Positions 8,134-30,513 of a stretch of 64,000 bases of DNA are shown here, in pieces (position 1 is the stretch's first letter; each line of letters begins with the position of its first letter). This stretch comes from an uncultured Clostridia bacterium (GTDB lineage Bacteria; Bacillota; Clostridia; UMGS1883): positions 9,792 through 73,791 of the forward strand of contig CAKSFM010000002.1 in NCBI GenBank assembly GCA_934454525.1. Reading direction: 5' to 3'. Both the position numbers and the translations under genes were made by a program. The notes beneath the pieces were generated by a model that did no database searches, was not told the DNA's origin, and was given only the letters and a program-made list of their open reading frames with translations.

Positions 8134-9333
8134 TTACTTATTAATATGCTTTCTGTACTCCGAAACACTCATTCCGGATACTTCGGCAAAAATTTTCACA
8201 AAATACTTCGTGCTTTTATATCCCACCTGCTCGCAAACATCGTCAAGCTTAGCCGCTTTATCTCTCAAAAGCTCCATCGCCTTATGAACGCGCTTTCGTT
8301 TCAGACATTCCGTGAACGTTTCACCCGTTTTTTTCTTAAAAAGGCGGCTGAAGTAAAACTCGCTCAAATGAACATATCCGGCAACATCCGCAAGCTGAAT
8401 TTCCTTCATGTAATTTTTGTCGATATATTCCATCGTTTGCAGAATGACTTCATCATCTCCGGAATAATGCGGTTCTCCTGATTTACCCATACTGTCGGCA
8501 AATTCTAAAATGCTTTGATAACTTCCCGAAAGCTCTGCCGTGATTTCCGTGCCGAGCACACTTTTAATTTTTTTGCACACGGAATTGATATAAATATCGC
8601 ACTGTGCCGGGATGTCATCAATCTTTTCCTCCGCGCACGCAAGAAGAACAGTATTTCCGTTTTCCGTGTACGATGAAAAAGATATCCCAGGAAGCTTTTT
8701 ATTGAAAAATTTCTGCAAGGTTGAAACGATTCCGTCATTAGTATTTTCAGGATATTGTATATTATAAACGCAGCAAAAACCCGAAAGAAATGTTCCGTCA
8801 TTCAAAACGGAAATGCTTTTCTGAAGCTCTTCTCCTTTTCCTGCATATTCGCCCGAAAAGAGCTTGCTTAAAATTTCCTGTCTGAGGAACATATTCGTCC
8901 TTTCAAGGCGTTCGATTATCTGTCTGCTGCGCTTGCGCTCTTCCTCTTCCTCATCGATTTTCAGCTTGATTTTTGCAAAAATCTCCTCAACCTCGTTAAG
9001 ATTGGTGGGTTTAAGCAGATATGCTTCAACGCTGTACTCCATGGCGCTTTTCACATATTCAAACTGCTTATATCCGCTGAGAATAACAACCTTTATATCA
9101 GGCTTGGAGGCACGTATTCCGCGCGCAAGCGCAAGTCCTGAAACGGATGTCATATTAACATCCGTCAGAACTGCGTCAACCGGGTTGGACAAGACGTATT
9201 CAAGTGCCTTGTCCCCGTCCGAAAAAGCTGCCGCAACTCTGAAGCCGATGCTTTCCCAGTCAATCATATCTTTAAGTCCGTCTCTGATGTCGTCCTCATC
9301 GTCAACCAAAATCAAATTGTAAAGCTCCGGCAT
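8134..9333 (-). CDS. Two-component response regulator, receiver + AraC-type HTH (YesN-like)
   Basis: Receiver domain LILVDDEDDIRDGL...VLTDVNM. C-terminal AraC HTH FYFSRLFKKKTGETF...VGYKSTKYFVKIFAEVSGMSVSEYR. Start moved to ATG 9333, preceded by GGGGTG. Confidence 0.88.
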   Translation of the reverse strand: MPELYNLILVDDEDDIRDGLKDMIDWESIGFRVAAAFSDGDKALEYVLSNPVDAVLTDVNMTSVSGLALARGIRASKPDIKVVILSGYKQFEYVKSAMEYSVEAYLLKPTNLNEVEEIFAKIKLKIDEEEEERKRSRQIIERLERTNMFLRQEILSKLFSGEYAGKGEELQKSISVLNDGTFLSGFCCVYNIQYPENTNDGIVSTLQKFFNKKLPGISFSSYTENGNTVLLACAEEKIDDIPAQCDIYINSVCKKIKSVLGTEITAELSGSYQSILEFADSMGKSGEPHYSGDDEVILQTMEYIDKNYMKEIQLADVAGYVHLSEFYFSRLFKKKTGETFTECLKRKRVHKAMELLRDKAAKLDDVCEQVGYKSTKYFVKIFAEVSGMSVSEYRKHINK

Positions 9334-9359
9334 TTTTTCACCCCGATTAATTATTTTTA

Positions 9360-28763: not shown

Positions 28764-28773
28764 CTCAGATATC

Positions 28774-30513
28774 CTATTCTATTATCGGAATATGCATTGT
28801 TACAACGGTTCCTCCGCCGGCGCACGGAGCAATAACAAGTCCGTACTTCATTCCGAACATTATCTTTATGCGTTCGTTAACGTTGCGCAGTCCGATATGT
28901 CCATCTCCCGCGCCCGTTTCGGAATTAATCTCATCGCATTTTTGCTGCGATATGCCAACGCCGTTGTCCGATATTTCAAAAATAATCTCCTCCTGCGTTT
29001 TTCTGAGTGAAATTTTAATCATGCCGCTTTTTCCGAGCGGTTTTATTCCATGATAAATCGCATTTTCGATAATCGGCTGAAGCGAAAGCTTCACCGTTTT
29101 GTACCGCCTGAGATTTTCGGCAGCATCCCACTCAACGTCAAAATTCTTATAACGCGCTTTCATAAGGTCAATATATTTTTCAATATATTCAAGCTCAGTC
29201 GATATATCTGTCAGATTGTCCGAAGTGTCAAGACTGGTTCTCAGCAGAAAAGAAAGCTCCAGGAGCATTTTGCTCGCCTCGTTTTCTCTTCCGCAAAGGC
29301 GCATGATTTTCCAGTTCAAAGCTTCAAGAGTGTTATAAAGAAAATGCGGATTTATCTGATACCGAAGTGCGCGCAGACTTTCTTCCTTAAGCTTTTCAAG
29401 CCTGAGATTCAATTCCTCCTGCGTTCGCTTGCGGTCAAGTTCCAATGCATTCAGAATATATTTCACTTCATTGGTGTCATAGCTTTGTATACCGCGGCGG
29501 TTATTTTCATCTATATACTGCAAAATGCTCTTTATCGGCGCAAACGACCGCAGTGAAGCATAGAACGAAAAAACGGCGGCAAAAATGAAAACTGCAAGCA
29601 TACTGATAAAAAACACCGTGAGAGAACCTTTTTTTGTTTTGTTAAAATCATCAAGCGGAGAAAAAGCAATATATTCCCAGCCGGTATATTCCGATATTGT
29701 GCGCACTGCCACATAATTATCAGCCTTGTACACAAATGCTTTTTTATCTGCATTTTTTCTGAGGATCGCTCCGTATTTCTCATACAGTCCCGATTCCGGA
29801 TTGCTGCGGAACACAACCTCCCCCGCTTTTGTGACAATCAGCGAATCGGTTTTTTCCGACCCCTCATTTATTATCTTTTTTATATTTTTCAGGTTAATAT
29901 TAATAATAACCGCGCCCAAATCTGCCGAACCCTGCATCGGCGCACGCTGAACAATACTTATATATTCCGGCTTAAATCCGTAAGTTTCGGGCGCTCTGTA
30001 CACGGCGCATGAGTTGCTTTTCATGCTGCGGTAGCTTTCCATCCACCCTGTGTCCGGAATCTTCTCAACACTTCCTATTTCCTGGTTTGATGTTATCACG
30101 GCATTATTTGTGTTTTCATAAATGTATATGCTTTCTATGTATTCCCCGTAAATAAGCATTGAATTGAGCGCACGGCTCAGCTCGGTTTTTTTCATCATCT
30201 TACTGTATGAATTAGCGTCAAACACCTTGCCCCTGAAAAAAGCGTCAAATGTGTTTTCGTTTGCAACACGGTATGCCATTCTTTCCGCTTCCATAATAAC
30301 AAGGTTGACGGTTTCATTGATGCTCCCCGCTTCATTGAGCTTTGACTCGGTAATTGATTTTTCGATGTAGCCGTTATATTCATTATAAATAATTATACCT
30401 GCCGCAGTAACCGGAATCATAACTGCGCAGATGATTGCAAGAAAGTTCCTTATGAAAATGCTGCTTCCCTTAAACTGCCTTATATATTTCCATGCTCCGT
30501 ATTTATTCACCAC
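28774..30513 (-). CDS. Sensor histidine kinase (YesM-like; two TM helices, extracellular sensor, HAMP, His_kinase, HATPase_c)
   Basis: Phospho-acceptor region LRYQINPHFLYNTLEAL. ATPase motifs ISDNGVGIS and GIGLRNVNERIK. TM helices near residues 20-45 and 290-315. GTG start with RBS AAGGTGG and an extended -10 (TGATATAAT, 30529-30537). Confidence 0.88.
   Translation of the reverse strand: MVNKYGAWKYIRQFKGSSIFIRNFLAIICAVMIPVTAAGIIIYNEYNGYIEKSITESKLNEAGSINETVNLVIMEAERMAYRVANENTFDAFFRGKVFDANSYSKMMKKTELSRALNSMLIYGEYIESIYIYENTNNAVITSNQEIGSVEKIPDTGWMESYRSMKSNSCAVYRAPETYGFKPEYISIVQRAPMQGSADLGAVIININLKNIKKIINEGSEKTDSLIVTKAGEVVFRSNPESGLYEKYGAILRKNADKKAFVYKADNYVAVRTISEYTGWEYIAFSPLDDFNKTKKGSLTVFFISMLAVFIFAAVFSFYASLRSFAPIKSILQYIDENNRRGIQSYDTNEVKYILNALELDRKRTQEELNLRLEKLKEESLRALRYQINPHFLYNTLEALNWKIMRLCGRENEASKMLLELSFLLRTSLDTSDNLTDISTELEYIEKYIDLMKARYKNFDVEWDAAENLRRYKTVKLSLQPIIENAIYHGIKPLGKSGMIKISLRKTQEEIIFEISDNGVGISQQKCDEINSETGAGDGHIGLRNVNERIKIMFGMKYGLVIAPCAGGGTVVTMHIPIIE

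Follow-up and report, generated by a model that had tools for sequence, protein, structure and literature searches.

Glycoside hydrolase family 141 (GH141) is a small CAZy family, with ~1,000 sequences in 2023. Its founding member is a fucosidase (PMC10154630), and the activities on record for the family span fucosidase, xylanase and endo-fucanase (PMC10154630, PMC5593877, PMC12786026). In BT_1002 of Bacteroides thetaiotaomicron (PDB 5MQP), a fucosidase that releases a disaccharide from rhamnogalacturonan II (RG-II), residues D523 and D564 are essential by mutagenesis, and they are conserved as D540 and D577 in the clostridial enzyme Xyn141E (PMC5593877, PMC10154630, PMC12786026), in which the two aspartates are spaced by 37 residues (PMC5593877). 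Xyn141E, a cellulosomal xylanase, is the sole Firmicute GH141 named in surveys of characterized members (PMC5593877, PMC12786026), and the endo-fucanase branch GH141*6 (Wf141 type) is marked by the signature HQxWxxxD, by a Trp replacing BT_1002 Q336, by RxD at the second Asp and by a sulfatase-rich locus (PMC12786026). Here we analyze a 64,000-nt stretch of DNA (the window) from an uncultured gut Clostridia bacterium (assembly GCA_934454525.1, contig CAKSFM010000002.1), focusing on a minus-strand locus at positions 8134-30513. Judging from its sequence, this locus is probably a Gram-positive polysaccharide utilization locus (gpPUL) built on GH141 and serving the use of a heteroglycan as a nutrient.

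Ten minus-strand open reading frames (ORFs), all co-directional, make up the locus in the ORF table. Together they provide the components by which gpPULs are recognized: a PF06580 kinase with a REC-AraC response regulator, a CUT1 solute-binding protein (SBP) of the lipoprotein type, two permeases and at least one carbohydrate-active enzyme (CAZyme). The features of the locus are the following:

28774..30513, minus strand: sensor histidine kinase, YesM-like (dCache_1, His_kinase and HATPase_c; Pfam E-values 1.4e-22, 5.7e-11 and 1.2e-10)
28730..28766, minus strand: intrinsic-terminator-like hairpin with a 13-bp stem and a U-tract, directly 3′ of the kinase stop codon
28587..28615, minus strand: promoter-like site of the sigma-70 type (TTGAAA-17-TATAAT); the LplB start lies 45 nt downstream
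27595..28542, minus strand: ATP-binding cassette (ABC) permease, LplB-like, CUT1 type (BPD_transp_1, E 1.2e-15)
26702..27601, minus strand: ABC permease, LplC-like (BPD_transp_1, E 3e-11), with a 7-nt overlap with LplB
22666..26655, minus strand: 1329-aa wall-anchored protein (Pfam: SLH 2e-29, Big_5 1.4e-21, Golvesin_C 7e-21)
26161..26565, minus strand: Golvesin_C module 1 of the 1329-aa protein (jackhmmer independent E-value 2.6e-39)
24811..25221, minus strand: Golvesin_C module 2 of the 1329-aa protein (jackhmmer independent E-value 5e-39; best Pfam stretch, residues 498-620)
19655..22669, minus strand: 1004-aa wall-anchored protein (Pfam SLH, E 7e-21)
16593..19649, minus strand: predicted GH141 enzyme “a”, 1018 aa (5mqp, BT_1002, E 4.2e-50; GH141_M 1.6e-14; Beta_helix 1.2e-11; GH141 profile E 4e-212)
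14363..16579, minus strand: PF12831 flavoprotein, 738 aa, cytoplasmic (FAD_oxidored, E 4.1e-91, profile positions 1-410 of 416)
12816..14366, minus strand: lipoprotein SBP, LplA-like (SBP_bac_1 3.2e-17; LTGC lipobox at residues 21-24)
9360..12791, minus strand: predicted GH141 enzyme “b”, 1143 aa (5mqp, E 3e-41; GH141_M 1.4e-17; GH141 profile E 1.2e-170)
8134..9363, minus strand: response regulator, YesN-like, last gene of the operon (Response_reg 1.1e-21 and HTH_18 1.7e-19, a REC domain with an AraC-type helix-turn-helix), with an ATGA overlap with GH141b
7650..7689, no strand assigned: perfect 20+20-nt palindrome (-31 kcal/mol, z -7.5) with A-rich and U-rich runs at its sides

We assign both secreted beta-helix proteins to GH141. 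Searched with phmmer against all PDB sequences, each returns BT_1002 as its top match, through alignments covering query residues 34-517 in GH141a and 476-943 in GH141b; the match to GH120 (3vst) is far weaker (E 5.8e-6). A 35-sequence profile comprising both window modules and 33 homologues matches residues 23-624 of 5MQP (E 4.6e-182), and the two proteins score above the Pfam cutoffs for GH141_M (54.5 and 64.4 bits; cutoff 27) and Beta_helix (44.9 and 29.8 bits; cutoff 25.9). Both are predicted to form right-handed beta-helices of the parallel type, into which the family-specific beta-sandwich is inserted. GH141a comprises a signal peptide, the catalytic beta-helix with its GH141_M insertion (17745-19562), one Golvesin_C module (17058-17471) and a C-terminal domain, and GH141b a signal peptide, three Golvesin_C modules (12297-12710, 11781-12188 and 11382-11774), the catalytic module (9639-11393) and a C-terminal domain. 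The predicted catalytic aspartates, D499 (codon 18153-18155) and D539 (codon 18033-18035) in GH141a and D936 (codon 9984-9986) and D971 (codon 9879-9881) in GH141b, fill two nearly invariant Asp columns aligned to D528 and D569 of the 5MQP chain; we infer from the identical 41-residue spacing that these are native D523 and D564 of BT_1002, offset by +5. The two aspartates lie 40 residues apart in GH141a and 35 in GH141b, against 41 in BT_1002. The second-best solved relative of the GH141 profile is the recently released PDB 9RX2, a 717-aa “parallel beta-helix repeat protein” (E 4e-97), for which a literature search found no paper.

An earlier first-pass annotation of this DNA, made from the letters alone, had found no enzyme that could be placed in a classical glycoside hydrolase (GH) family and had proposed an uncharacterized depolymerization route in which beta-helix proteins and a flavin adenine dinucleotide (FAD) enzyme formed the catalytic complement. 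The first statement falls with the insertion domain and both catalytic aspartates present in each beta-helix protein, and the proposed route is not needed, since ordinary glycoside hydrolases explain the depolymerization. Its description of the two beta-helix proteins as paralogous is sound: their catalytic modules have diverged to 37% identity, which makes them old paralogues. By the annotation's own standard, its reading would fall if the beta-helix proteins belonged to well-characterized families of known substrate and the locus matched one of the described polysaccharide utilization loci (PULs), and this holds by half. The family assignment is now confident, but GH141 has no one known substrate, and the literature searched yielded neither a described PUL matching the locus nor a GH141-based Firmicute PUL with partners anchored by S-layer homology (SLH) repeats. 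The annotation's remark that the substrate cannot be named also stands, as specificity does not follow from membership in GH141.

The genes from LplB onwards run through LplC, the 1329-aa and 1004-aa SLH proteins, the 1018-aa beta-helix protein, the FAD enzyme, the lipoprotein SBP and the 1143-aa beta-helix protein to the AraC-type regulator. With ORF-table starts, the successive junctions measure -7, 22, -4, 5, 13, -4, 24 and -4 nt; the LplC/1329-aa junction lengthens from 22 to 46 nt once the GTG start at 26655, which lies behind an AGGAGG, is used. The ATGA overlaps reported at first pass (22666-22669 and 14363-14366) are confirmed, the latter coupling the SBP gene translationally to the FAD gene, and a third was found at 9360-9363. 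The hairpin at 28730..28766 is followed by UUUUAUUG and folds at -22.9 kcal/mol (z -4.9), with none of 200 shuffled sequences folding equally well. The TTGAAA-17-TATAAT site agrees with the consensus at 11 of 12 positions, the best of the region, and is a consensus match only. Because a terminator-like hairpin and a promoter-like site follow the kinase gene, the kinase would be its own transcription unit and the genes from LplB to the regulator one ~20.4-kb operon. Pfam domains, tight junctions, hairpin and promoter-like site thus bear out the first-pass picture of a YesMN/LplABC-framed Gram-positive polysaccharide locus with one long transcription unit and a separately terminated kinase gene. 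NCBIfam sugar ABC permease models match the LplB-like permease weakly, far below threshold. Pfam detects no ATPase gene in the locus; LplABC-type systems use a shared ATPase.

Downstream of the regulator, a 507-nt spacer without genes (7627-8133) separates the operon from two esterase genes and contains two strong hairpins. One is the 7650-7689 palindrome, ~445 nt past the regulator and just ahead of the ribosome-binding site of the GDSL esterase gene, which is likely a bidirectional terminator closing the operon; the second, at ~7866-7888, reads CCCAAAAACC-TTT-GGTTTTTGGG. Rfam gave nothing at gathering thresholds, and in the two long spacers sub-threshold matches at chance level only.

Signal peptides are present on all four large secreted proteins, two of which are SLH proteins. 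The 1329-aa protein, a length that the GTG start bears out as first given, consists of a signal peptide, a Golvesin_C module, Big_5 Ig-like domains, a second Golvesin_C module, a stretch without assignment and three C-terminal SLH repeats; residues 1156-1326 align to the SLH domain, itself of three repeats, in the S-layer protein Sap (3pyw), and its first Golvesin_C module matches the C-terminal module of a Paenibacillus xanthan lyase (6f2p, E 2.4e-4). The 1004-aa protein comprises a signal peptide, a Golvesin_C module (22223-22597), SLH repeats (~21749-22159) and a 698-aa all-beta region (19658-21751). A word-index search with four matches had made this last region look like an orphan, an idea overturned by an exhaustive search that found 1767 representative homologue clusters at E ≤ 1e-3. 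These homologues are mostly SLH repeats followed by ~700 aa, some with a Golvesin_C or an F5/8-type-C module; their long region matches no Pfam family, and one distant member sits in a non-sugar context. An AlphaFold2 model of the 698-aa region (predicted local distance difference test score, pLDDT, 84; predicted TM-score, pTM, 0.50) shows small beta domains strung one after another, and a fold search with it against the PDB gave no convincing match (query-normalized TM-score, TMq, ≤ 0.15) and no enzyme fold. No catalytic domain was detected in either SLH protein, by sequence searches for both and by AlphaFold2 modelling and fold search for the 1004-aa protein only. PDB sequence searches on the two SLH proteins and on two giant proteins encoded upstream of the locus gave SLH matches and one match of the carbohydrate-binding module (CBM) kind only, and NCBIfam added nothing. 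It is a fair reading, in line with the non-catalytic look remarked on at first pass, that the SLH proteins are non-catalytic, wall-anchored glycan-capture proteins.

What joins these proteins to the hydrolases is the Golvesin_C module, of which the window encodes seven copies, all of them within the four secreted proteins (independent E-values 1e-30 to 4e-61). GH141b begins with three of them and GH141a has a single one behind its catalytic module; the 1329-aa protein has two, and the 1004-aa protein one near its N-terminus. Golvesin_C (IPR033803) corresponds to CBM6-CBM35-CBM36_like_2 and occurs in xanthan lyase and in glycan-binding Bacteroides lectins; binding specificity is documented for two members only, the lectins Cbeg4 and Cbeg5, which recognize an N-glycan motif (PMC9166713). 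The sharing of this putative CBM by hydrolases and wall-anchored proteins is the strongest pointer to a single glycan as the target of all four.

Domain content and gene order suggest how the locus would work. The two secreted GH141 hydrolases, each with its Asp/Asp pair and targeted by CBMs, would cut an extracellular heteroglycan that the two SLH-anchored proteins, bearing the same type of CBM, would hold at the cell wall. Released oligosaccharides would be imported by the lipoprotein SBP with LplB and LplC, energized by an ATPase from elsewhere in the genome, and the cytoplasmic PF12831 flavoprotein would act on the imported product. The dCache histidine kinase and the AraC-type response regulator would induce the operon, and co-transcription of the regulator with the structural genes would create a positive feedback.

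The flavoprotein is the sole cytoplasmic enzyme encoded in the operon. Its start is the ATG at 16579, behind an AAGGAGG, giving 738 aa instead of the 755-aa ORF, in agreement with gene callers in other assemblies. The sequence opens directly with a GGGIAG dinucleotide-binding motif of the GxGxxG type (residues 11-16) and carries no signal peptide, and we therefore take the protein to be cytoplasmic, as the first-pass annotation had it. An AlphaFold2 model (pLDDT 89.8, pTM 0.92) shows an N-terminal FAD domain and an all-beta C-terminal region. PDB searches, whether with the single sequence or with a 38-sequence profile, gave matches confined to the first 44 residues, which hold the FAD-binding motif, and a fold search with the model gave generic fumarate-reductase and flavin-monooxygenase matches with query-normalized TM-scores of at most 0.27, too generic and too low for function to be transferred. 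The family counts 6975 homologues at E < 1e-10, all named generically (“FAD-dependent oxidoreductase” or “hypothetical protein” and the like) with no name that gives a function. Some homologues have a second, C-terminal Pfam domain, PF22633, which we take to be an F5/8 type C-like domain, and RESRR and WxxDxH contain conserved Arg, His and Asp residues. The literature searched for PF12831/FAD_oxidored in glycan loci offered no description of function.

Genomic context was surveyed in 80 genome loci containing a FAD homologue, fetched with the family alignment, by counting neighbors within 8 kb. LplB/C-type permeases were found in 43 of the 80 loci, the kinase in 40, the AraC regulator in 65, the SBP in ~44 and a GDSL esterase in 11, and no single GH family recurred. 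A recurrent neighbor “family” in 38 loci was discarded, as it consisted of antisense shadow ORFs of the FAD gene. When the loci are divided by similarity, 16 have a FAD protein with at least 40% identity to that of the window, and 14 of these have a Golvesin_C protein no more than 10 kb away; none of the 64 loci of lower identity does (Fisher p 8e-14). In the Paenibacillus/Bacillus loci L014, L016, L017, L019-L023, L025 and L081, at ~13.6-19.3 kb in each, we observed large proteins (1500-1900 aa) that combine 3-4 Golvesin_C modules with a ~900-aa core and always adjoin the FAD-enzyme orthologue and a GDSL/CE2-like esterase. This core has no Pfam or NCBIfam match except a faint one to ChitinaseA_N, and the proteins may hide an unrecognized catalytic domain.

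The locus recurs well beyond the window. Its DNA is present in at least six gut-metagenome contigs at 99.6-100% identity, including Hadza samples, with one 69-kb ENA contig 100% identical, and a further copy (L012) is 90% identical. Public gut assemblies hold ~100 sequence variants per protein (at least 90% identity), a number similar to that of the housekeeping genes in the window, and for this reason the locus seems to belong stably to a gut species that is met with repeatedly; housekeeping genes also form the flanks of the window. A core cassette consisting of the SLH/Big_5 protein, the Golvesin_C-SLH-beta protein, a GH141 enzyme and the FAD enzyme occurs in two other gut Clostridia metagenome-assembled genomes (L013 and L052) at 40-52% protein identity, and in L052 they are joined, in an altered arrangement, by the kinase, the regulator, the two permeases and the SBP. 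Near-identical contigs and cassette recurrence together establish that the gene arrangement is not due to chance. Additional genes accompany both relatives: a 1057-aa Golvesin_C/Big_5 protein, a second GH141 with a CBM35, a 712-aa beta-helix protein and a GH101-like gene in L013 (12185-22145), and a divergent glucuronate isomerase (UxaC) in L052 (2702-4057). As possible clues to the substrate they conflict with each other.

As for the substrate, our best guess would be a heteroglycan of plant or microbial origin that contains fucose, xylose or uronate, for example an RG-II-like pectic structure. Both enzymes retain a Gln at the position equivalent to Q336 (DIQGN and DIQAN), as do BT_1002 and Xyn141E, and show YHD against the RxD of the endo-fucanase branch, so they lack the marks of GH141*6; domain scans found no sulfatase among the window proteins. 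Together these features make a sulfated fucan unlikely. Two overlapping esterase genes lie beyond the spacer:

6685-7626, minus strand: GDSL/SGNH esterase gene (Lipase_GDSL_2, 4e-22)
5655-6692, minus strand: CE15-like glucuronoyl esterase gene (GCE_fung, 4.9e-28)

They stand 507 nt and a hairpin away from the operon and may be accessory to the locus. Neither protein has a signal peptide, and for that reason the glucuronoyl-esterase homologue appears to be cytoplasmic. The CE15 family is usually described as secreted, and a cytoplasmic member is unusual. No CE15 homologue was found in the 80 related FAD loci. On the far side of the esterases, galT and galK adjoin the locus, and a perfect 24+24-nt inverted repeat (5608-5656) between the convergent galK (plus strand, ending at 5585) and CE15-like (minus strand, ending at 5655) genes is likely a bidirectional terminator.

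Several of these observations weigh against a GH141-based nutrient PUL as we describe it. No cytoplasmic glycosidase is encoded in the operon, an unusual lack for a locus of this type; the imported oligosaccharides would have to be processed either by glycosidases from elsewhere in the genome or by the flavoprotein. Only four homologues exceed 40% identity to the window GH141 enzymes, and these match BT_1002 through local alignments with many substitutions, so the specificity of BT_1002 is not transferable to GH141a and GH141b, in a family whose range is wide (exo- and endo-fucosidase, endoxylanase and endo-fucanase). The hints at a substrate are weak, amounting to a CE15-like esterase behind a terminator, UxaC beside L052 and a GH101-like gene beside L013, and the 1329-aa protein is presumed non-catalytic from sequence searches alone. 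Few lineages that are independent of each other stand behind the association of 14 in 16, namely a single group of Paenibacillus/Bacillus and three or four Clostridia of the gut, and the closest FAD homologues outside the cassette (52-54% identity) sit in unrelated neighborhoods, so the link between FAD enzyme and cassette is not absolute.

Explanations that give the flavoprotein a larger part have to be considered against this background. Depolymerization outside the classical GH and polysaccharide lyase (PL) families, with the two beta-helix proteins and the FAD enzyme as a new catalytic complement, would accommodate a FAD enzyme that has no characterized or solved relative, is conserved in the cassette and is accompanied by no other cytoplasmic enzyme in the operon. 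We regard it as very improbable, because beta-helix proteins with the GH141 insertion and both aspartates let a known family explain the extracellular cut, and because a FAD protein devoid of a signal peptide cannot reach a polymer outside the cell. A narrower proposal is that the flavoprotein itself degrades the oligosaccharide after import and so replaces an intracellular glycosidase; its chemistry might be an elimination that follows oxidation or reduction, or else a flavin-assisted reaction that is redox-neutral. Its position as the only cytoplasmic enzyme of the operon, translationally coupled to the SBP gene, its combination of a FAD domain with a long all-beta C-terminal region, the PF22633 domain of some homologues and the family's placement within sugar ABC loci, seen in about half of the 80 genomes, all speak for such a role. 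So does the conservation of RESRR and WxxDxH, which suggests an anionic or polar substrate, and the occurrence of the family in strict anaerobes as well as aerobes, which makes an obligate O2-dependent oxidase unlikely. Yet the family has neither biochemical precedent nor structural analogue, glycosidases elsewhere in the genome could process the imports, and the enzyme could equally act on a released monosaccharide; on balance we think the proposal unlikely. Extended to the whole family, it would make the long-form PF12831 flavoproteins, with more than 6,900 homologues, an unrecognized class of intracellular carbohydrate-active enzymes that process LplABC-imported oligosaccharides, here in place of a cytoplasmic glycosidase, with one subfamily specific for the class of glycan recognized by Golvesin_C, a generalization that we put forward as possible though doubtful.

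Other alternatives keep the proteins as assigned and change their target. Remodelling of the bacterium's own envelope or exopolysaccharide (EPS), whether S-layer, secondary cell-wall polymer or EPS, in place of nutrient harvest, would suit the SLH anchors on two of the four secreted proteins, the membership of one SLH protein in a large family of SLH repeats plus ~700 aa found outside sugar loci too, the two giant surface proteins encoded just upstream and a nearby LytR-CpsA-Psr gene. The kinase, AraC regulator, SBP and permeases are, however, the frame of inducible nutrient uptake, and multiple CBMs on secreted hydrolases and a conserved link between importer and cytoplasmic enzyme fit catabolism, which leaves envelope remodelling with hardly any probability in our judgment. 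A fucosylated host glycan, either mucin O-glycan or N-glycan, could instead be the target of the same PUL mechanism. The bacterium comes from the human gut, the founding GH141 member is a fucosidase (PMC10154630), a gene similar to endo-alpha-GalNAc-ases of GH101 adjoins the related L013 cassette, lectins with the Golvesin_C type of CBM bind an N-glycan motif (PMC9166713), and galT and galK are adjacent in the window. On the other side, domain scans found no sialidase, GH29/95, GH20 or sulfatase at the locus, and the CE15-like esterase and the UxaC neighbor, weak hints as they are, point to uronates. The Hadza source populations eat a high-fibre diet, which counts weakly in the same direction, and we hold a host-glycan target to be improbable. 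A GH141-based gpPUL for a plant or microbial heteroglycan remains our preferred reading.

Directly upstream of the locus, at 31024-45068 on the minus strand, lie a TetR-like gene (200 aa), a gene for a 2303-aa secreted protein and one for a 2172-aa SLH-anchored protein. An ATGA overlap couples the TetR-like gene to the 2303-aa gene, and the 2172-aa gene follows 15 nt further on. The 2303-aa protein has no sequence match in Pfam, NCBIfam or the PDB, the 2172-aa protein matches FIVAR, Flg_new_2 and C-terminal SLH only, and the two show no internal repeats, no similarity to each other and no Golvesin_C. This 14.9-kb block is bracketed by two copies, 87-89% identical, of a ~265-nt element, located at 30591-30895, upstream of the kinase gene, and at 45505-45833, upstream of the TetR-like gene. 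The element appears to end in imperfect 11-nt terminal inverted repeats (CAGACTGTCGA ... TCGACACGCTG), and each copy has a duplicated local terminator-like hairpin on both sides (CAAAAGCCTAACGGCTTTTG, or AGGGATTCCGCAATTTTTTTGCGGAATCCCT). It looks like an insertion of the miniature inverted-repeat transposable element (MITE) type that duplicated its hairpin target; Rfam does not match it, and JGI metagenome contigs do not contain its invariant core of 50 nt. The idea that some strains lack the giant-protein block was rejected, as the gene order of L005 is collinear with that of the window and the “336-aa gene” there is a fragment at the end of a contig.

With GH141 enzymes as its sole hydrolases, in a compact, conserved and probably inducible setting of a recurrent gut Clostridium, the locus offers a clean start for establishing a new GH141 specificity, and likewise for defining the ligand of Golvesin_C. 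Should the substrate be RG-II-like, it would represent a non-Bacteroides route for an RG-II-like glycan in the gut. The more useful lead is the flavoprotein, which belongs to a very large uncharacterized family found in sugar-import loci of about half of the genomes sampled, with one subfamily tracking a particular CBM.

Among characterized enzymes, BT_1002, from the RG-II PUL of B. thetaiotaomicron, shares with the window proteins GH141 membership, a beta-helix with GH141_M, both catalytic aspartates and the active-site Gln, as well as a human-gut host bacterium and a glycan locus that is inducible there and probably so here. It differs in being a 624-aa protein without CBMs, whose Gram-negative PUL is of the SusC/D type and encodes over 20 further CAZymes, whereas in the window the two GH141 enzymes are the only GHs of the locus, have one and three Golvesin_C modules, respectively, and would act together with an ABC importer and SLH-anchored partners. 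Xyn141E (Cthe_2195) of Clostridium thermocellum is likewise a Firmicute GH141, multimodular with a CBM, surface-displayed and endowed with the conserved Asp pair (PMC5593877). It is, however, a cellulosomal endoxylanase attached through dockerin and cohesin, with a CBM6 and an operon containing CE1, GH43 and GH2, whereas the window enzymes have no dockerin, a different CBM and no xylan-debranching enzymes around them, and are closer to BT_1002 by E-value; no dockerin or cohesin match was found in the scanned window proteins, which sets the locus apart from cellulosomes.

At the level of the locus, gpPULs of Bacillus, Paenibacillus and Clostridia show the same PF06580 kinase, REC-AraC regulator, ~500-aa lipoprotein SBP and pair of CUT1 permeases, and the same lack of an ATPase gene. 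Typical gpPULs include intracellular GHs, for which the window has the PF12831 flavoprotein only, and the window further departs from them in placing the regulator at the distal end of the structural operon and the kinase in a separate unit. In the SLH-anchored CAZyme systems of Monoglobus pectinilyticus, Caldicellulosiruptor and Paenibacillus, SLH repeats hold glycan-binding or glycan-degrading proteins on the wall; here, by contrast, nothing but CBMs and domains of the Ig-like or beta kind accompanies the repeats of the SLH proteins, and the hydrolases are without SLH repeats. The FAD loci of Paenibacillus and Bacillus (for example L016 in P. etheri, and L011) share the kinase, the regulator, LplB/C, the SBP, a 42% identical FAD enzyme and a secreted protein with 3-4 Golvesin_C modules, but have no GH141 and no SLH proteins, the partner there being a 1500-1900-aa protein with a ~900-aa central region, together with a GDSL/CE2-like esterase. 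The locus is ordinary in kind among these systems: a YesMN/LplABC gpPUL equipped with GH141 hydrolases.

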